A DNA stretch of 64,000 nt from an uncultured Candidatus Saccharibacteria bacterium. GTDB lineage: Bacteria > Patescibacteriota > Minisyncoccia > Phycocordibacterales > PALSA-1337. The stretch is from contig CAYXZI010000002.1 in the NCBI GenBank assembly GCA_964470105.1, positions 8,644 through 72,643 of the forward strand. Direction: 5' to 3'. A program made the translations under genes and the position numbers. The notes beneath the pieces are model-generated. The model saw nothing but the letters and a program-made list of their open reading frames with translations, was not told the DNA's origin and made no database searches. Shown one piece after another: positions 32,923-49,288 of the stretch; position 1 is the stretch's first letter; each line of letters opens with the position of its first letter.

Positions 32923-33315
32923 ATGAATAAAAGATACCTTCAATGGCACAGTATTAAAGAAAGGATAGAAAACCTTAATTCATCTTATATTTATTTTAAG
33001 GAAAGAGATATTTGGTGGTGTCACCTGGGTGCTAATGTTGGCATGGAACAAGATGGGAAAAGTGAGTTCTTTATCCGTCCAGTCTTAATCTTTAAAAAAC
33101 TTAGTAGAAATACTTGCCTAATTATCCCTCTCTCTACACAAGTCAAGAGTGGTAGTCACTACTTTTTCCTTCTCTCTGAGTCTAATGTTATTCGTACTGC
33201 CACATTAGCTCAGATTAGAATGATCGATATTAAACGACTTAGAGATAGAATCGACTTAATTTCTAAATTAGAATTTGGTTTTATAAAAGAAAAAGTCATC
33301 GATTTGATTCGATAA
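32923..33315 (+). CDS. MazF/PemK-family endoribonuclease toxin with no adjacent antitoxin
   Basis: RDIWWCHLG..EQDGKSEFFIRPVLIF...CLIIPLSTQ...LAQIRMIDIKRLRDRI aligns with the conserved blocks of MazF/EndoA. There is a ~25 aa N-terminal extension. Confidence 0.72.
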   Translation: MNKRYLQWHSIKERIENLNSSYIYFKERDIWWCHLGANVGMEQDGKSEFFIRPVLIFKKLSRNTCLIIPLSTQVKSGSHYFFLLSESNVIRTATLAQIRMIDIKRLRDRIDLISKLEFGFIKEKVIDLIR

Positions 33316-33495: not shown

Positions 33496-35265
33496 TTACT
33501 TGATCTCTGAACCGATCAAGGTTTTGAAGAACTCATTGGTTGCTGAGAGTTCATCGTATGTCCCCTCACCGACAACTTGTCCCTTATCGAGGACAATGAT
33601 CCGATTCGCTTTTTTCACCGTACCTAAACGGTGTGCGATGATGATACCAGTACGTCCACGGAGAGCATTCTCCATTGCGACGTACACCTCTGCCTCAGTC
33701 TTGTAGTCCAAGGCGCTTGTTGCTTCATCGAAGACAATGACACTTGGATCGCCGGCCAGAACTCTAGCTATAGCGATCCTTTGGCATTGACCTCCAGAGA
33801 GCTGCGCTCCGTTTTCACCAATCAAGGTACCGAGACCATCTTTTCCGAGTCTCGCCAAGAACTCTTCTATTCTAGAGTATCTTACCACTGCATCCAGATC
33901 TCCTGGAGCAAGGTCTCGGTCTGAGCCGAATAGGATGTTCTCGCGAACACTAGCGTCCCATAGCATCGTCTGCTGAGAGACAGTCCCTATCCTCCTTCGC
34001 CAAGAATTAATAGCTATCGTTTCGATAGGTAAATCATCGACACGAATAGTACCACTCTGTGGAGCATTTGCTCGCAGTATGAGTGAGACGATCGTACTTT
34101 TTCCACTACCAGACGGGCCAACAAATGCCACGGTCTCTCCAGGTTTTATGTGGAATGATACGTTATTTAGCGCATGTGGCTTGCCGGCCTCATACGCAAA
34201 TGATACATGATCAAAAACGATATCCCCTCTGGGGTTTTCGAGTTGGATCGCATCATCGTGATCAGCACACTCAGGTTCCTGTTCAATGAAGTCTCTTAGA
34301 CGCACGACATTGATACTAGACCTCATGATCTGACGCTGAATCGTACCTATGTTACTCAGGCACATATATACACCTCCGATGAGAGAGATGATAATTGCAA
34401 TGTCACCGGTGCTGATACTTCCACCCTTAACCAGGGTGAAGATCAGCAGAAGGATTGGTGCGTAGAGAAAATACTGAAATGGCATGTTTCTTAACAAACC
34501 AACAGCGATGTTGTATGCGCACCAAACTTTCTTCCCCTCACGAAAAGCCGTGTCTTGCCTTTGCAAGAAACTTCTAAGTGTCTTTTCATGTGCGGCCATG
34601 CTGATGACAAGTTTGAGATTCTTCACGATTTCCCAGAACTTTGTCTCAGTATCCGACTCTAACTTCCTAGCTTCTTTAACTCTGTCGACGTAGTAGTTGT
34701 TTGTGACAATACTCGCAACGGCGAAACAGATGGAAGCAGAAAGAATGCAAATCGCCACGATCCAATTGACATAGAACAAGAGACTAATCGAAATCAGTAT
34801 CCTTATGACAGTTGGAATGACATGCTCGAAGATTAGACTCATGAGATCAGTGACCGCTGATGAACCCTTCTGCAGAGTATCCATCTTTAGTCCTGTATTT
34901 TCACGAGTGATCTGACCCGGCGAAAGCTTAAATAGCTTGCCGAATGAATAGAGTCTTAAGTGCCCTTCCACATCAAAAGCTATATTGTTAATATGGAAGA
35001 CTGACTCTATAATGTGTCCGAGACAGATTAACACTGATATCACCGCAATCAGTACAGTAATGCCGCCAAGCGACATGAAGTCACTTGAACCGACTATGAT
35101 ATCAACCCCTCTTCCAACCAAGAACGACTGGCTGATCGACATCATCTGTATTGCGAGAATCATTAGGGTGTACAGGTAGTACCTCCGATGAAGTACGACT
35201 GTAATCTTCCAAACGTACGAGATAGCATCTAGTGCTATCTCCATACGGTTTTTCTTTTCTTTCAC
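33496..35265 (-). CDS. ABC exporter, fused TMD-NBD type (MsbA-like)
   Basis: Six predicted transmembrane helices. Walker A GPSGSGKST, signature LSGGQCQRIAIARVL, Walker B VIVFDEATSALD. GC is about 48%. Confidence 0.9.
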   Translation of the reverse strand: MKEKKNRMEIALDAISYVWKITVVLHRRYYLYTLMILAIQMMSISQSFLVGRGVDIIVGSSDFMSLGGITVLIAVISVLICLGHIIESVFHINNIAFDVEGHLRLYSFGKLFKLSPGQITRENTGLKMDTLQKGSSAVTDLMSLIFEHVIPTVIRILISISLLFYVNWIVAICILSASICFAVASIVTNNYYVDRVKEARKLESDTETKFWEIVKNLKLVISMAAHEKTLRSFLQRQDTAFREGKKVWCAYNIAVGLLRNMPFQYFLYAPILLLIFTLVKGGSISTGDIAIIISLIGGVYMCLSNIGTIQRQIMRSSINVVRLRDFIEQEPECADHDDAIQLENPRGDIVFDHVSFAYEAGKPHALNNVSFHIKPGETVAFVGPSGSGKSTIVSLILRANAPQSGTIRVDDLPIETIAINSWRRRIGTVSQQTMLWDASVRENILFGSDRDLAPGDLDAVVRYSRIEEFLARLGKDGLGTLIGENGAQLSGGQCQRIAIARVLAGDPSVIVFDEATSALDYKTEAEVYVAMENALRGRTGIIIAHRLGTVKKANRIIVLDKGQVVGEGTYDELSATNEFFKTLIGSEIK

Positions 35266-35336: not shown

Positions 35337-36179
35337 CTACCTACTCCATCTAGCAAAAATACCACAAGGAAGAAGTCTGTTTGTTCGAGATTCAGGTAAT
35401 GTTAATTCCCCTATTTCTATACTCCCACCAAATTTATCAACCAAAACACTCAAAACATTTCTATATGCTATAGCTGAATATCCTGCTGAATATCCATTTA
35501 TTAGAAAGAATAGTGGCTTATCTTTCAATAGCTTTATGCAATCCTCAACTAAAGTTAAGAAATTTTCCTCAATCTTCCACACTTCCTTATTAGCCCCATG
35601 ACCGAACGCTGGTGGATCCATTATTATTCCATCATACATATTTCCTCTCTTTATCTCTCTTCCAACAAAAACACGTGCATCTTCTAGAATCCATCGTATT
35701 GGTTTATCAGCTAGACCAGAGAGTTCTGCATTTTCTCTTGCCCAAGTTATAGCAGACTTTGACCCATCTACATGAACAACCTTTGCACCAGCTTGTGCGC
35801 AAGCCAGAGATGCACCGCCAGTATATCCGAAGAGATTAAGAACATCCGCACCAACATTATCTTTTAGTATATTCCTCATCCAATTCCAATTCACATATTG
35901 TTCTGGAAAAAGTCCTGTATGTTTAAAAGCTGTTGGCTTAATCCAAAGCTTTAGACCACCAAAATTAATTGACCACTTATCAAGTTTCTCCTTTTTATAT
36001 GTCCATTCTGCTGAAACCTCTGATCTAGAGAAACTTGCATCAGCAACCTTCCAATCCTTATCTTTTAAATTCTTTCTCCACAGTGCTTGCGGATCCGGGC
36101 GAGATAGAACAAAATTACCAAATCTTTCGAGTTTTTCACCTTCTCCAGAATCTAGAAGTTCATAGTCTTTTTCATTCAT
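35337..36179 (-). CDS. Class I SAM-dependent RNA methyltransferase (RlmI/m5C-like)
   Basis: FGYTGGASLACAQAGAKVVHVD and DGIIMDPPAFG. Confidence 0.7.
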   Translation of the reverse strand: MNEKDYELLDSGEGEKLERFGNFVLSRPDPQALWRKNLKDKDWKVADASFSRSEVSAEWTYKKEKLDKWSINFGGLKLWIKPTAFKHTGLFPEQYVNWNWMRNILKDNVGADVLNLFGYTGGASLACAQAGAKVVHVDGSKSAITWARENAELSGLADKPIRWILEDARVFVGREIKRGNMYDGIIMDPPAFGHGANKEVWKIEENFLTLVEDCIKLLKDKPLFFLINGYSAGYSAIAYRNVLSVLVDKFGGSIEIGELTLPESRTNRLLPCGIFARWSR

Positions 36180-36697
36180 AATACGTCTTGATTAGTCTTT
36201 ATACCTAAATACACTATATGGAAAGCAAAAATAGCTATAAATATTGTGATTACATCAGAGACCATACAATATATACATATTGCATGCAGTACAAAAAGCA
36301 TTATGAAGATAAAACCAAGAGCACCGAGTAGACCAAGTAGTGCTAATATAGAGACAATTTTTATGCAGATATCTTTCACAAAAGAACTCTTTGAATCGTA
36401 ATATGCAAATATTGATATTAGTAGGAAGAGATAGAATATTAAACCTAATAGAGCTACTGGTATACCGAGAATCTCAGAATAGCTACTTGAAAGCACCTGT
36501 TCACATCCAGAAATTGCACAAGGAGGTATGATACCTTGATAATGTTTTACAGTCAGATATGTTGCATCAGCAAAACCAACGAGTGATAGCACTAATATTA
36601 CTATAGGTATCCACTTAGGAAGCTGTTGTAGTTGCAGTGGCTTCGTCAATAAGAGTTTTAAATTGTTCATAACTTTGTGCATTAATTTTCTTACCAT
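36176..36697 (-). CDS. Vitamin K epoxide reductase (VKOR)-family membrane oxidoreductase
   Basis: A loop Cys pair PPCAISGC and the active-site CIYC in a transmembrane helix. The 5' end overlaps the upstream DsbA-like gene, so the true start may be an internal Met. Confidence 0.72.
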   Translation of the reverse strand: MVRKLMHKVMNNLKLLLTKPLQLQQLPKWIPIVILVLSLVGFADATYLTVKHYQGIIPPCAISGCEQVLSSSYSEILGIPVALLGLIFYLFLLISIFAYYDSKSSFVKDICIKIVSILALLGLLGALGFIFIMLFVLHAICIYCMVSDVITIFIAIFAFHIVYLGIKTNQDVL

Positions 36698-37268
36698 TTA
36701 AATAAAATGTTGGTGTACTATTAACCCCCGCCTTCAGTCCACTTTTTACATGTGACTCTATTTTTGCTTTTATCTCAGGTAGTTCATAGTCAGTAGCAAA
36801 TTTATCTACATCAAGACCCAACTTATTAGCATAATCAATAAAGACAGGTTTTGGTATGCTCTGATTCTCCCATGATTTCTGATTCTCAAAAATCATTGAG
36901 TACATCTCCCAGAATTTTCCTTGTATACCTGCCGCTTCTGCTGCTTGTGCTGCAGGTATAGCATTTAGGTGTTGTGATAGAGGGAAATGACGATATACAA
37001 ACTGATAGTGTGTATTATATTTAGTATACAACTCTTCAACTATCGGGAAATATAGTCCACATGCCGGACACTGAAAATCACTATACTCAACTATAGTAAC
37101 AGTCGACGATGCAGAACCCCTAACCCAATCTTCAGATGTAACTTTATCAACTGGTGCAACATTATTGTTAATCTTTTCTGCCTTATTAGCAGCCGCAATC
37201 ATACCCCAGATAATCAGACCAATAACGATAATAAATGAGCCCCAACTCAGTATTCTTTTTGTATTCAT
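36615..37268 (-). CDS. DsbA-like thioredoxin-fold thiol:disulfide oxidoreductase
   Basis: A signal-anchor and the motif YSDFQCPACGLY (CxxC). It is adjacent to VKOR. Confidence 0.75.
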   Translation of the reverse strand: MNTKRILSWGSFIIVIGLIIWGMIAAANKAEKINNNVAPVDKVTSEDWVRGSASSTVTIVEYSDFQCPACGLYFPIVEELYTKYNTHYQFVYRHFPLSQHLNAIPAAQAAEAAGIQGKFWEMYSMIFENQKSWENQSIPKPVFIDYANKLGLDVDKFATDYELPEIKAKIESHVKSGLKAGVNSTPTFYLNGKKINAQSYEQFKTLIDEATATTTAS

Positions 37269-37862: not shown

Positions 37863-39485
37863 TTATATTATATCAAAGAAAGACATGAATTTTGCTGGAT
37901 CGATTGAAATGCCGCCAATCTTAATACTTAAATGAAGATGTGCTGCATCAGCATAACCTGTCCTACCACTTAAACCTATTATATCTCCAGTTTTAACAGT
38001 ATCCCCCTCTTTTACTTTTAACTCTGATAGGTGCATATATAAAGTACTCAATCCAAGACCATGATCTATAATTACCGTATTACCATATACGGTATATAGT
38101 CTAGAGACTCTGATAATGCCATCATTCATAGCCATAACTGGAGTACCGATTGAAGCTCTGAAGTCTGTTCCTTTATGAGCTATTAAAAAACCGACAGTAT
38201 CTCTATTGTAGCCATAATCATCTGTTACAAATATTGATTCTAATGGCTTACCAAAAGCGTCAGTCCATAAACTGGTAGTTGCAGTTTTTATATTGTTGAT
38301 ACTTGCATTTTCTTTAGTCAGATTATCGACAAGAGTCTTTCCAGCTTCTTTGGTATTACCTCCGAGTTTCTCTGGAATACCTAATGGCTTTTCAATTTTC
38401 TCACGTGGGGTTAACGTTAACGGTTCATTAATAACCATGCCATTATTCAGGGTTACTTTTATTGAATGTTCCATTTTTGTCTCCTCAAATGGAATGGCAA
38501 TGAAAGCAACTTTCTTGCCTTTATATGTAAGCGTTTGAATCTGTTTGGTGTCATACATAACACTTGATATTGTAGAGCTGGCACTAATGGTAACCATTAC
38601 TGGATCACCTGGATATACATTCTTAGGTTTTATATTTACAACTGGAGCTACAACATTATTTTCTATCACCACCTTAGTATTAGGAATGACCTTATTCGGC
38701 ATTGAAAGTGATATAAGAATTATTATTGCAATTAGTATTCTATAGTATCCAAAGGCGGTAAGAGATATCTTATTCAAATGTTTCTTTAGAAAAAGAATCA
38801 CTAGAAATGCTACGAGAAGTGAGACTACAAATCCTAAAATTAGACCGTCCCAGGAATGCAATTTTAGTAAAATGTCCTTTGACTTATATGCATCATATAT
38901 CACCGCTGCACCTAGTGTTGGTAATGCTAGTAGAAATGTATATTCAATAATTGTAGATTTCTTTATCTTCCTTAAGATACCGGCAATAATTGTTGCACCT
39001 GATCTCGATACTCCAGGAACAATAGCGATAGCTTGTGCAATACCTATTACAAATGCATCAAGCATTGAGATTTCTTCTTTACCAAACTTTTCTAGATCCC
39101 TACCTACTATCTTCCGCATAAATACTTTTTCTAAATATATAAATATTATTCCACCTATTGCCATAGTTATAGCTATTAGGATCATATTCCCTTCCAATAG
39201 CTGTTTGAATAGTTTATAAAATATAAAACCGATAATAGCACTTGGAATGAAACTAATGCATAGATTTATAAAAATCTTTCTATCAGAGAAGATTTTTTTT
39301 ATGTATATAATCAAACCCGCAGACAAGGCGCCAAACTGGATGAAGAGTATGTAGAACTTTATGTATGCATCAGTCGTATCTACGTGCAAAAATTTAGATA
39401 GCAAGATGAGGTGAGCAGTTGATGAAACTGGCAGAAATTCAGTAAAACCCTCTAGTGCAGATAGAATTATTAAGTATATATTCAT
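37863..39485 (-). CDS. uppP: Undecaprenyl-diphosphatase (UppP/BacA) fused to a C-terminal M23 (LytM) peptidase domain
   Basis: The N-terminus has EGFTEFLPVSSTAHL and PGVSRSGATIIAGIL (BacA motifs). The C-terminus has HKGTDFRA...GNTVIIDHG...YMHLS...GRTGYADAAHLH (M23 HxxxD/HxH motifs). Confidence 0.85.
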   Translation of the reverse strand: MNIYLIILSALEGFTEFLPVSSTAHLILLSKFLHVDTTDAYIKFYILFIQFGALSAGLIIYIKKIFSDRKIFINLCISFIPSAIIGFIFYKLFKQLLEGNMILIAITMAIGGIIFIYLEKVFMRKIVGRDLEKFGKEEISMLDAFVIGIAQAIAIVPGVSRSGATIIAGILRKIKKSTIIEYTFLLALPTLGAAVIYDAYKSKDILLKLHSWDGLILGFVVSLLVAFLVILFLKKHLNKISLTAFGYYRILIAIIILISLSMPNKVIPNTKVVIENNVVAPVVNIKPKNVYPGDPVMVTISASSTISSVMYDTKQIQTLTYKGKKVAFIAIPFEETKMEHSIKVTLNNGMVINEPLTLTPREKIEKPLGIPEKLGGNTKEAGKTLVDNLTKENASINNIKTATTSLWTDAFGKPLESIFVTDDYGYNRDTVGFLIAHKGTDFRASIGTPVMAMNDGIIRVSRLYTVYGNTVIIDHGLGLSTLYMHLSELKVKEGDTVKTGDIIGLSGRTGYADAAHLHLSIKIGGISIDPAKFMSFFDII

Positions 39486-39871
39486 TTATATATAATATCT
39501 TGAATCTTCAAGGAAAGATATCCGAGTATTCCCAATTGGAGTGTTGGTGTTAGACCGATACCCAATATTGGAATAATTGGCATGTATTCATTGTATGCCC
39601 ATCTACCTGTAGATAAAGCAGCCCACTCTATACTAATAGCAACAATGAGACCAATAATAGTGATCATCCAGTACTTATCCTTAAACCATGGTAGGAAAAG
39701 AAATGGTAAGTAGAAAATTGTAATCATCACTGCATCACCAAGTGTTGCGCGTAAAAGTATGAATTCTGTTATCTTCCCTCCCATATAGTGAGAGTACAAT
39801 AGGGAGTGAATATTCTCCCATATGAAATTTAGTATAAAAGAAACTACAAATACAATAGTGATTCTTTTCAT
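39482..39871 (-). CDS. Hypothetical membrane protein
   Basis: 129 aa with 4 predicted transmembrane helices. Confidence 0.35.
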   Translation of the reverse strand: MKRITIVFVVSFILNFIWENIHSLLYSHYMGGKITEFILLRATLGDAVMITIFYLPFLFLPWFKDKYWMITIIGLIVAISIEWAALSTGRWAYNEYMPIIPILGIGLTPTLQLGILGYLSLKIQDIIYK

Positions 39872-40339
39872 TTATCCCTGCTTACCGTTATATACCACTA
39901 TCTCAGTATGAGTCTCTTCTGCTTCATCTTTTCCGTGTCTTAGGTGAAAATCATAGTGTGGGTTTGAGATTATAGCCAAACTTATCGAAGTACATAGAAT
40001 ACACACGTTTCGAAATATGATATTCATAGTATGAAAATCCGTAATAAATATACCGAACATTAATCCTGCTGCAGCAATACTTGGTAGAAAAATCTTTTTA
40101 CCGGATAGCAGCCATAGACCAATAACTAACTCTGCCCCACCCCAAGTTATGAGAAGAATGTCATCAATTTTCCAATCTCTCATAAAATCTGGAAAATATG
40201 CTAGCCACGGTATTGGATTAATAAAAGCAGAAATGGAGGCGTAGAGAAATACAAAAGCTACTCCAAATCTTAATAGAAACCACACTATTTTAATTTGTCT
40301 TGGTGTCATGTTTTGATCCATACAAGTATTATACACCAA
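39872..40339 (-). CDS. DoxX-like membrane protein
   Basis: LLRFGVAFVFLYASISAFINP... matches the DoxX pattern. Confidence 0.5.
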   Translation of the reverse strand: MVYNTCMDQNMTPRQIKIVWFLLRFGVAFVFLYASISAFINPIPWLAYFPDFMRDWKIDDILLITWGGAELVIGLWLLSGKKIFLPSIAAAGLMFGIFITDFHTMNIIFRNVCILCTSISLAIISNPHYDFHLRHGKDEAEETHTEIVVYNGKQG

Positions 40340-40416
40340 ATGGGTTTAGGGGATAAAAAAAACAATCCCCGGTGTGAGCCGAGGACTTGAAATCAAAACT
40401 TTGAGGGGTGTGTGAA

Positions 40417-40827
40417 TCACTCCTTAATGGTCAGAGAAATCTCTTGACCAAAATCCTCAGGAGGAAGGACTGAACGGATCCAGAGTCCTCGTTCTGTTGA
40501 AGTGGCTTCTGCCATAAATAGAGAGAAGATGAATTCCAGCGGGATGTCTGGTACAGCAGGCCCAGATGATGTTGGTTGTAGCGATAACAGCGTAACTCTT
40601 ATCGCACCTCCTGAAAGTGGAATATACTCCACCATATTTATCACCCCGGAGTATTCAATACCCTGGAATGTGAATCTGGCGGTACCGCCCGACAACCTCT
40701 GAATATCCTCCAAGTTGTCGAATCTCAGTGGTTGTATCTGTCTCTTTCTGCCGAGCAGTTTGATGAGGAGGACGCCGACAGGCAGGATGACGAGGAGGAT
40801 CAGAATAACAATTGCAGATGTCTTCAT
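40417..40827 (-). CDS. Hypothetical membrane-anchored protein within a GC-rich island
   Basis: 136 aa with an N-terminal transmembrane helix. About 50% GC. Confidence 0.4.
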   Translation of the reverse strand: MKTSAIVILILLVILPVGVLLIKLLGRKRQIQPLRFDNLEDIQRLSGGTARFTFQGIEYSGVINMVEYIPLSGGAIRVTLLSLQPTSSGPAVPDIPLEFIFSLFMAEATSTERGLWIRSVLPPEDFGQEISLTIKE

Positions 40828-40975
40828 GTTTTGGTGAGTTGGTTGTGCTTGGTTTACCCAGACTTCAAGTTATATTATTCTATGGAAAAGTCAATTTAAT
40901 ATTTTTAACATAAAAGGCAGACCGCAGATGTTACTCTGCGGTTGTTTGAATTCGATTTCGAAATAGGTGCTGGTC

Positions 40976-41629
40976 CTATACAGCCCCTTGTACCAAGATA
41001 AGATCCGATGAAGCAGATGAGACCGCTGTTCCCGTGTTCCAGGTACGAAGTATCTCACTCAGCCAGTCTTGTCCATGCGCAGTCTGCGACTGGAAGAACA
41101 CACCTGTATCCAGATTATTATGGGATGCTGCGTAAAAACGCAAATAATAGCCAGACTTGTAGTTTTCTTTGATGTACTCCCTGATCTCAGGTAGACACAG
41201 AATGAGTTGGCTGGGATCGGCCATGTTGAGCCCATAACGCGCCATGACTTGACGGAAAACTGAGAGTTTACTACCGCGCGCCACACGGAAAAGTGTGTAG
41301 TGTCCGGCACAGGAGTATTGGACTGGAAGTGCCTTAAGAACTGAATCGCGTTTACCTATGTCACCGATCTCATCGCCGACCGGTACCGTATTTACGAGAT
41401 CGAGAAGCTGGTTTGCTCCTTTGGGTGCAACTTCAATCGTTGCCACTCGCACGAATAGGCTTCTGACCATCAATTTTGCAACCTCATCGGCCAACCTCTC
41501 CTCTGAGAGCAGACGGAGCAAGTCGTCATCGGCTTCACCACCAGCATCCTGAATTGCCTCCGCGAGTCTTTGGATGATTTGCAGATTTTTGTCACCCTGC
41601 CTAACAAGGACTGATTTGAGTTTCTTCAC
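40976..41629 (-). CDS. Hypothetical protein within a GC-rich island
   Basis: 217 aa with no recognisable motif. About 50% GC. Confidence 0.4.
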   Translation of the reverse strand: MKKLKSVLVRQGDKNLQIIQRLAEAIQDAGGEADDDLLRLLSEERLADEVAKLMVRSLFVRVATIEVAPKGANQLLDLVNTVPVGDEIGDIGKRDSVLKALPVQYSCAGHYTLFRVARGSKLSVFRQVMARYGLNMADPSQLILCLPEIREYIKENYKSGYYLRFYAASHNNLDTGVFFQSQTAHGQDWLSEILRTWNTGTAVSSASSDLILVQGAV

Positions 41630-41731
41630 AATGAACCTTTTGTTTCATGGCCTACCCACACTGAATTTGTATCAGTAAAGCCTACCATGTTCAAATAATA
41701 CAATACTTTGTTTATACTGAAATGTCAACTC

Positions 41732-41806
41732 TGGGTGGCTATCGGGAGTCGAACCCGAACTAAGAGTTCCACAAACTCTGGTGCTAACCGCTACACCATA
41801 GCCACC
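41732..41806 (-). tRNA. tRNA-His (anticodon GUG) with an encoded G-1
   Basis: Hand-folded cloverleaf. G-1 pairs with the discriminator C73. Anticodon loop UUGUGGA. T-arm UCGGG-UUCGACU-CCCGA. Confidence 0.85.
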
Positions 41807-48682: not shown

Positions 48683-49288
48683 TTATACCACCTTTTGTTT
48701 TTGTTTAAAGAATTCATACACAGCAGGGATAAATGAGATGACTATAATTACTATAATTATAAGTGAGAGGTACTTTTCTGCATTAGGAATTATATTACCT
48801 AGTATATATCCTGTACCCAGCATCCCCCATGTCCAAACAAAACCTCCGATAATATTGAACCTGAAGAAAGTCTTATACTCCATGCCCGCTACTCCAGCAA
48901 CTATTGGCACAAAAGTTCTTATAATTGGTATGAATCTAGCGAGAAATATAGTTTTTTTACCATATTTATTATAAAAATCTTGAGCTCTATTTATATGTTT
49001 TTTATGAAAGAAGAGTGAGTCTTCTTTATTGAAAATCATTGGACCCACCTTCTTACCAAAGAAATATCCAACATTATCACCAATTACGGCAGCAATGAAA
49101 CAGAGTATGAGAAGCCAGGTAATAGATATCAAACCTTGTGAGGCCAGGAAGCCTGCTGTAAAAAGAAGTGAATCACCAGGTAGAAAAAAACCGAAGAAGA
49201 GTCCAGATTCAGCAAACACTATTGCAACCACACCAATCAAACCAAGTGTTTTAATTATAATCAATGGATCAAGTAGTGTATGCAACAT
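48683..49288 (-). CDS. DedA-family membrane protein
   Basis: VAIVFAESGLFFGFFLPGDSLLF. Confidence 0.8.
   Translation of the reverse strand: MLHTLLDPLIIIKTLGLIGVVAIVFAESGLFFGFFLPGDSLLFTAGFLASQGLISITWLLILCFIAAVIGDNVGYFFGKKVGPMIFNKEDSLFFHKKHINRAQDFYNKYGKKTIFLARFIPIIRTFVPIVAGVAGMEYKTFFRFNIIGGFVWTWGMLGTGYILGNIIPNAEKYLSLIIIVIIVISFIPAVYEFFKQKQKVV

Follow-up and report, generated by a model that had tools for sequence, protein, structure and literature searches.

The window analysed here, a whole stretch of 64,000 nucleotides (nt) from contig CAYXZI010000002.1 (GenBank assembly GCA_964470105.1, labelled as an uncultured Candidatus Saccharibacteria bacterium), carries a minus-strand gene at 37863..39485 whose product appears to join an undecaprenyl-diphosphate phosphatase (UppP/BacA) to an M23 peptidase. 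The locus raises the question of whether this is one protein, how it arose, and whether lipid-carrier recycling and wall hydrolysis are coupled in it. How wall hydrolases are kept in step with wall synthesis has long been an open question, and undecaprenyl diphosphate (C55-PP) is a by-product of every glycan-polymerisation step. The original prediction for this locus, made from the DNA letters, proposed an in-frame UppP–M23 fusion and named domain content, membrane topology, conservation in orthologs and the zinc ligands as points to check. The gene is a real fusion, and its product is probably a bifunctional membrane-embedded envelope enzyme in which a predicted outward-facing C55-PP phosphatase is tethered to an extracytoplasmic Pgp3-type peptidase.

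The fusion gene and its distribution

37863..39485 (-), whole fusion gene, 540 codons plus stop

The interval is one unbroken open reading frame (ORF) of 540 aa, and the plus-strand frame is stop-ridden. Pfam searches placed BacA (PF02673) at residues 6–255 (E 4e-58; 197.6 bits, cutoff 33.4; profile positions 2–257 of 257) and Peptidase_M23 (PF01551) at residues 437–530 (E 4.8e-29; 100.8 bits, cutoff 28.7; profile positions 3–96 of 96). Both matches are highly significant, and the fusion proposed by the original prediction holds. The BacA and M23 motifs that it had quoted were all found in the order and spacing it gave: EGFTEFLPVSSTAHL at 12–26, PGVSRSGATI at 157–166, HKGTD at 437–441, DHG at 474–476, YMHLS at 483–487 and HLHLS at 516–520. 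An AlphaFold2 (AF2) model built from an 87-sequence alignment of fused and standalone relatives has a mean predicted local distance difference test (pLDDT) score of 94.4. Its only poorly defined stretch is at about residues 262–281, with pLDDT <50 at 268–276.

The identical protein was found in an NCBI assembly and on three independently assembled contigs, each from a different SRA run. Eleven further 90%-identity clusters from NCBI, JGI, ENA and Logan have both Pfam domains in a single frame at similar length (498–552 aa) and are 44–79% identical to it, so the fusion is kept in orthologs. When 1.84 billion representatives at 50% identity were searched exhaustively with HMMER, one full-length match, P0009, was returned. 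The UppP–M23 architecture is thus real but very rare. Source annotations of the fusion proteins read "undecaprenyl-diphosphatase" only, and the literature that was searched contained no earlier description of a UppP/BacA–M23 fusion. Each half belongs to a well-known family; the new part is the combination of domains, a new architecture variant.

Four fused loci come from species-representative metagenome-assembled genomes labelled Paceibacteria or "Saccharibacteria". Three of these labels are 'Candidatus Saccharibacteria' (L008, L010 and L011, third-party annotation (TPA) assemblies) and one is 'Candidatus Paceibacteria' (L009). Homolog names point to Paceibacterota, Parcubacteria and Taylorbacteria, and the Saccharibacteria labels look unreliable.

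The UppP half

38703..39485 (-), UppP/BacA domain, residues 1–261, six transmembrane helices plus two re-entrant helix pairs, predicted N-out/C-out (Pfam, phmmer to 5oon/6cb2, AF2 pLDDT mostly >90, Foldseek, counts of lysine plus arginine)
39411..39452 (-), UppP motif 1, EGFTEFLPVSSTAH; E12, E16, S22 and H25 correspond to E. coli E17, E21, S27 and H30
38988..39017 (-), UppP motif 2, PGVSRSGATI; S160/R161 correspond to E. coli S173/R174
38739..38741 (-), R249 in the last UppP helix, corresponding to E. coli R261

In the AF2 model, residues 1–261 superpose on E. coli BacA (5oon/6fmt) with template-modelling (TM) scores of 0.82–0.84 and a root-mean-square deviation of 2.8–3.0 Å (Foldseek). The original prediction had counted about eight transmembrane helices; the modelled membrane part instead has the BacA fold, with six transmembrane helices and two re-entrant helix pairs. 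Every catalytic or structural residue highlighted in the BacA structure paper (PMC5852022), the source of the residue roles used here, is conserved. In E. coli BacA, R261 locks the two BacA domains together (PMC5852022). Kink prolines P80 and P187 align with E. coli P101 and P202. Both motifs are conserved in ten closely related fusions (P0001–P0010), and the divergent fusion P0012 departs from them at single positions only, outside the catalytic residues. Standalone Patescibacteria UppPs of 254–266 aa are 55–67% identical to this half.

The tether and the peptidase half

38643..38702 (-), flexible linker forming the fusion junction, residues 262–281, MPNKVIPNTKVVIENNVVAP (low pLDDT, junction alignment)
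38385..38642 (-), N-terminal beta domain of the peptidase module, residues 282–367, equivalent to the Pgp3 N-terminal domain (NCBIfam, AF2, Foldseek)
38229..38384 (-), inter-domain segment, residues 368–419, with conserved GIPEKLGGNT and a helix at 379–397 (alignment, AF2)
37866..38228 (-), LytM/M23 catalytic domain, residues 420–540 (Pfam, PDB matches, Foldseek)
38163..38177 (-), HxxxD zinc-ligand motif HKGTD, H437 and D441 (alignment)
38031..38033 (-), catalytic His485, equivalent to Pgp3 His216 (alignment)
37932..37940 (-), HxH motif HLH; H516 catalytic (Pgp3 His247), H518 third zinc ligand (alignment)

A linker of about 130 aa had been proposed between the two halves. The flexible part is only about 20 aa (residues 262–281), and the remainder is already part of a Pgp3-type peptidase, namely its N-terminal domain and inter-domain segment. 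The beta domain at 282–367 and the helix at 379–397 are also conserved in standalone M23 relatives, Patescibacteria proteins of about 300 aa that are 40–65% identical to the C-terminal half. Residues 282–540 superpose on full-length Campylobacter jejuni Pgp3 (6jmy) with a TM score of 0.79 over about 255 columns (Foldseek), and fusion residues 278–537 align to positions 9–267 of the 270-position NCBIfam Pgp3 model (NF052530).

Across all 20 aligned relatives, fused and standalone, neither the zinc ligands (H437, D441, H518) nor the catalytic histidines (H485, H516) vary. C. jejuni Pgp3 has been shown by experiment to act as both a DD-endopeptidase and a DD-carboxypeptidase (PMC6978369). By architecture, the C-terminal half appears to be a complete two-domain DD-endo/carboxypeptidase of the Pgp3 type, with activity predicted by analogy with Pgp3. 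No exact substrate specificity is assigned to it, as scores fall under function-level cutoffs and, in the pairwise alignment, conservation does not extend to the Pgp3 substrate-contact residues Arg195 and Tyr215.

Membrane topology

The BacA crystal structure has its N- and C-termini on the same face of the membrane, which its authors assign to the periplasm, the pocket side, from the positive-inside rule (PMC5852022). When the model helices of the fusion were mapped on the BacA topology, lysine and arginine together numbered 16 in predicted cytoplasmic loops and 2 in outer loops. Homology to BacA and this charge distribution predict an N-out/C-out protein whose peptidase module is extracytoplasmic and shares that side with the opening of the UppP pocket. 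The construction of the fusion itself lends independent evolutionary support to an N-out/C-out topology for BacA, because exactly one in-to-out helix was deleted, whereas DedA fusions to the same peptidase (below) keep that helix.

Origin of the fusion

Unfused close relatives carry uppP immediately upstream of the M23 gene, with a 4-bp overlap in L014 and L015/L016 and a 37-bp gap in L013. The downstream genes of these three loci are those of the window: a membrane protein of about 190 aa, a DsbA-like protein, a VKOR-family protein and a methyltransferase. The alignment of standalone and fused proteins shows that standalone UppP stops right after helix 10 and that the standalone peptidase starts with a Lys-rich N-terminus and one transmembrane helix. 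Exactly this M23 signal anchor is missing from the fusions; linker 262–281 stands in its place, and helix 10 leads directly into it. Lengths are consistent, at 255 plus 300–306 aa for gene pairs and 528–552 aa for fusions. The junction alignment thus indicates that the fusion arose from an adjacent uppP→M23 pair through loss of the peptidase's signal anchor. In a distant pair, L050, uppP and the M23 gene lie in one frame with a single stop between them and the anchor is retained. Simple read-through of such a pair would add a membrane crossing and misplace the peptidase, because the anchor is kept; the deletion that made the fusion is predicted to preserve topology.

The M23 protein of L013 (P0014; L013:2516-3418), encoded 37 nt after uppP, has an unusually short N-terminal hydrophobic stretch (MTTIVIFYCSFFLN). 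It may have a mis-called start or be an intermediate toward fusion.

Neighbour-joining trees were built separately for the UppP and M23 halves, with 60 bootstraps each. The UppP half of P0012 falls outside the Paceibacteria-type UppP clade (60/60), its peptidase half lies in a different subclade, and its genomic context differs; the trees thus place P0012 as an independent fusion. P0010 groups with the unfused L014 pair in both halves (58/60 and 60/60), and the fusions were never monophyletic (0/60). Because P0012 stands apart, P0010 joins an unfused pair and the fusions are not monophyletic, the fused state evidently arose at least twice and is evolutionarily labile.

Unfused gene pairs and other fusions

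Among close unfused loci, three have the order uppP→M23 (L013, L014, L015/16) and two the order M23→uppP (the P0026 contig and L101), where uppP directly follows the M23 gene in a different subclade. Where uppP is missing, the slot beside the M23 gene is either empty or taken by a PG_binding protein or a polysaccharide deacetylase, and this position appears to collect varied cell-wall genes. The deacetylase follows the M23 gene in L102 (L102:3751-4488). A protein of about 300 aa follows it at L004:6935-7852 and L006:6911-7810, with a weak PG_binding_1 match in L006 and none in L004.

The search of representatives also returned P0305, in which a VTT/DedA-family membrane domain is joined to the same Pgp3-type peptidase. 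This DedA–M23 architecture occurs in three clusters (P0305, P0386 and P0387) of 70–100% identity from independent sources:

L018; L019:1625-3154; L020:1611-3140, DedA–M23 loci of a separate Patescibacteria clade

These fusions retain the Lys-rich segment and transmembrane anchor of the peptidase. Downstream of the fusion gene in L019 and L020 come a PAP2_C gene and a gene for an S11 DD-carboxypeptidase, and a VTT+PAP2 fusion gene lies nearby. The DedA family includes UptA, a translocase of undecaprenyl phosphate (C55-P), and Sit et al. 2022 (PMC9876793) took DedA–PAP2 and DUF368–BacA fusions as evidence for a role in carrier recycling. Assignment of the DedA modules as C55-P translocases was not possible, with NCBIfam UptA scores of 44–75 bits against cutoffs of 250–300 (44 against 250 for the DedA domain of the M23 fusion). 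The parallel between DedA–M23 and carrier recycling is suggestive only.

Two other UppP fusions carry a polysaccharide deacetylase (P0351, 524 aa) and an alpha/beta hydrolase (P0119, 499 aa). The UppP half of P0351 groups with that of P0012 (53/60 bootstraps). A further protein, P0279 (477 aa), combines M23 with a GDSL esterase.

Proposed function and alternatives

In the favoured reading, a bifunctional envelope enzyme, residues 1–261 would act as an undecaprenyl-diphosphate phosphatase and the tether of about 20 residues would hold the M23 zinc peptidase outside the membrane. By analogy with C. jejuni Pgp3, the peptidase module would cleave DD-cross-links of peptidoglycan (PG) and/or trim terminal D-Ala. 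The fusion arose in a subclade of Paceibacteria-type Patescibacteria in which uppP immediately preceded the M23 gene, the two often overlapping by 4 bp. The stop codon and the signal-anchor helix of the peptidase were lost together through an in-frame deletion, which left the last UppP helix as the peptidase's anchor. The outcome would be obligatory 1:1 co-localisation of C55-PP dephosphorylation and PG peptidase within a few nanometres of the membrane. That this co-localisation is the selected benefit, with wall peptides being cleaved or shortened at the sites of lipid II consumption and C55-PP release, is an evenly balanced proposition.

Several observations weigh against this reading. The predicted TM score of the fusion model is 0.64, which leaves the relative orientation of the domains uncertain. 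The peptidase scores 156.7 bits against the Pgp3 model cutoff of 300 and is not a Pgp3 ortholog, and the UppP half lies below the NCBIfam/TIGRFAM equivalog cutoffs (NF001389, 188.4 against 262 bits; TIGR00753, 163 against 217.5). Five close unfused loci have no uppP (L004/5, L006/7, L021, L022, L102), and across the wider M23 family uppP was nearby in L050 only, with 79 of 80 metagenomic loci without it. Fused and unfused states interleave among close relatives, and the deacetylase and hydrolase fusions suggest that UppP can act as a generic C-out anchor for exo-enzymes. The 1 in 80 metagenomic loci refutes uppP–M23 adjacency as a general trait of the peptidase family. The association has recurred, in both gene orders, in at least two fusions and in one distant pair, and is confined to particular subclades; any coupling is clearly dispensable because uppP is absent from the neighbourhood in half of the close unfused relatives and in 79 of the 80 loci.

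The subthreshold scores bear on two readings in which one half is inactive. A UppP half degenerated to a pseudo-enzyme and kept only as a membrane scaffold would fit its equivalog scores and the sight of no other UppP in the window, which is only part of the genome. The half is divergent, and its C55-PP phosphatase function is predicted by homology; still, it keeps all residues highlighted in the BacA structure, both motifs persist in P0001–P0010, and its standalone Patescibacteria relatives are presumably functional, which makes degeneration quite improbable. Even less credit goes to the M23 module as a dead LytM regulator of the EnvC, NlpD or Csd2 type that activates another hydrolase, the non-catalytic alternative raised by the original prediction. 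It shows weak NCBIfam likeness to EnvC, NlpD and ActS models, as any LytM domain does, but its top matches are the active enzymes Pgp3, ShyA, MepM and lysostaphin, and the reading was rejected because all zinc ligands and catalytic histidines are invariant. Close relatives do carry the two genes adjacent and overlapping, as a merger of neighbouring genes by a frameshift or lost stop in assembly would require. Such an artefact has next to no probability and was dismissed, given the contigs of different sequencing runs, the single-frame orthologs and the missing anchor of roughly 25 aa, which a frameshift would not delete.

The bifunctional reading has its main competitor in a neutral anchor swap, in which both halves work independently, UppP merely replaced a single-pass anchor and the tether has no mechanistic meaning. 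The original prediction had suggested that the fusion could target the hydrolase to sites of PG precursor flipping; the evidence at hand, tethering and repeated genomic association, fits a plain replacement of the peptidase's membrane anchor by UppP equally well. The ancestral genes overlapped by 4 bp and small deletions easily fuse them; the lability of the fused state, the varied envelope genes in the slot beside M23 (uppP, polysaccharide deacetylase, PG_binding protein), the fusions P0351 and P0119 and the rarity of nearby uppP in the surveyed loci all favour it. Against it stand the repeated independent juxtaposition of uppP and M23, in two gene orders, at least two fusions with phylogenetically distant UppPs and the distant pair L050, and the use in a second fusion clade of a DedA-family domain, from a family that includes C55-P translocases. 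Each fusion also required a topology-preserving deletion and not mere read-through. Roughly half of the weight is given to co-localisation as the selected function and about a third to the neutral swap, with the remainder going to other readings. A stronger form of the coupling, in which the M23 peptidase is deliberately wired to carrier recycling through UppP (or through DedA beside PAP2-family genes) and acts only where lipid II is consumed and C55-PP released, seems unlikely.

Gene neighbourhood in the window

40387-40364, terminator-like hairpin just upstream of the DoxX/MauE-like ORF
39872..40339 (-), DoxX/MauE-like membrane ORF, 155 aa, likely the first gene of the operon
39482..39871 (-), 129-aa membrane ORF directly upstream of the fusion and translationally coupled to it; found elsewhere only in the nearest relative, L008
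37287..37853 (-), 188-aa polytopic membrane protein, starting 9 nt after the fusion stop
36615..37268 (-), DsbA-like thioredoxin-fold protein, conserved downstream block
36176..36697 (-), VKOR-family protein, conserved downstream block

The fusion gene lies in a tightly packed minus-strand run of a DoxX-like ORF, the 129-aa ORF, the fusion and genes for the 188-aa protein, the DsbA-like protein, VKOR and a methyltransferase. Its ATG overlaps the TGA of the 129-aa ORF (ATGA). Within the window it encodes the only UppP and the only M23 domain of the Pgp3 type. Further out, the order of FolD, SIMPL, NusG and L11 genes is the same as in the unfused relative L013. The longest ORFs of the DsbA-like and VKOR genes overlap by 83 nt (36615..36697). 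The VKOR start is called later on identical contigs (164 aa), and the 173-aa ORF is probably overextended at its 5′ end.

The 188-aa protein matched no Pfam family. In all close relatives its gene lies downstream of the M23 gene, directly or past one or two inserted genes, and upstream of DsbA–VKOR. It is 62–95% identical across relatives, above the neighbouring M23 proteins, with invariant GAMxGDLxLFxF and ASPxPDEFG. A cryptic DedA identity, prompted by GAMVGDLVLFLF and ASPLPDEFG, was not supported by profile searches. In comparisons with VTT/DedA, VTT_dom matched one of nine orthologs at E 0.26 (Pfam), and the hhalign probability was 0.14%. With BLASTP, the match to the P0305 DedA domain covered 40 residues at E 0.043. 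A single-sequence AF2 model reached a pLDDT of 60.6, too poor for structure search.

A standalone DedA-family gene is present at 48683..49288 (-), about 9 kb from the fusion, beside PilM-like and tRNA-binding-domain genes. Its product scores 77 bits to VTT_dom, 155 against a cutoff of 236 to NF008102, and 67–75 to UptA models, far below their cutoffs. A GC-rich island at about 40400..41700 (0.44–0.49, flanks 0.32–0.38) lies beside tRNA-His (41733..41805, -) with flanking terminator-like hairpins. Its ORFs at 40417..40827 and 40976..41629 (-) have no Pfam match, and the island recurs on the independent contig L001. Horizontal acquisition is a possible origin. A PemK/MazF-type toxin ORF (32923..33315, +) and an ABC transporter gene (33496..35265, -), with a GC content of 0.43–0.45, break the methyltransferase/pseudouridine synthase order conserved in L013. 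This segment looks like an insertion.

Relation to known systems and significance

E. coli BacA/UppP (5OON, 6CB2) shares with the fusion its fold, both signature motifs, catalytic and domain-locking residues, predicted topology and outward-opening pocket. The fusion is only about 28–29% identical to it and adds an extracytoplasmic C-terminal extension of about 280 residues, whereas E. coli BacA ends after helix 10. C. jejuni Pgp3 (6JMX/6JMY) shares the beta domain, linker/helix and LytM domain, the zinc ligands and the His216/His247 equivalents, at 27–29% identity. Pgp3 itself is soluble and periplasmic, from a helical Gram-negative bacterium, whereas the module described here is covalently tethered to a polytopic membrane enzyme. 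Standalone M23 (such as P0014, P0022, P0023) and UppP (such as P0148, P0176, P0239) proteins of Patescibacteria, encoded by adjacent genes, are 50–67% identical to the respective halves and share the downstream block. These pairs represent the direct evolutionary precursors of the fusion; they differ in being two polypeptides, with the peptidase bearing its own Lys-rich N-terminus and transmembrane signal anchor.

Other C55-P(P) recycling modules form comparable Rosetta-stone-type fusions, namely the DUF368–BacA, DUF368–PAP2 and DedA–PAP2 proteins noted by Sit et al. 2022 (PMC9876793). Those proteins join two membrane modules that handle the lipid carrier, whereas here a carrier phosphatase is joined to a PG hydrolase; no M23 architecture was found in that paper's text or in the portions of its supplements that were covered. 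In the Csd1–Csd2–Csd7 complex of Helicobacter pylori, the M23 DD-endopeptidase Csd1 is held by the polytopic Csd7 and tied to PG-precursor machinery, being coupled to the CcmA–Csd5–MurF synthesis complex (bioRxiv 10.1101/2025.08.29.672660). That association is non-covalent, and its membrane partner is no known enzyme and has no UppP homology.

The reach of the finding is limited by the fusion being rare, lineage-restricted and dispensable. It serves as a "Rosetta stone" hint at a specific, testable partnership between lipid-carrier recycling proteins and M23 endopeptidases. Should the tether prove to be a neutral anchor swap, the fusion would remain a clear case of two genes joined within a compact envelope operon in uncultivated Patescibacteria. 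If the peptidase is indeed wired to carrier recycling, these bacteria would have a built-in spatial coupling of wall hydrolysis to synthesis, and a non-covalent UppP/DedA–endopeptidase coupling might exist in model bacteria.

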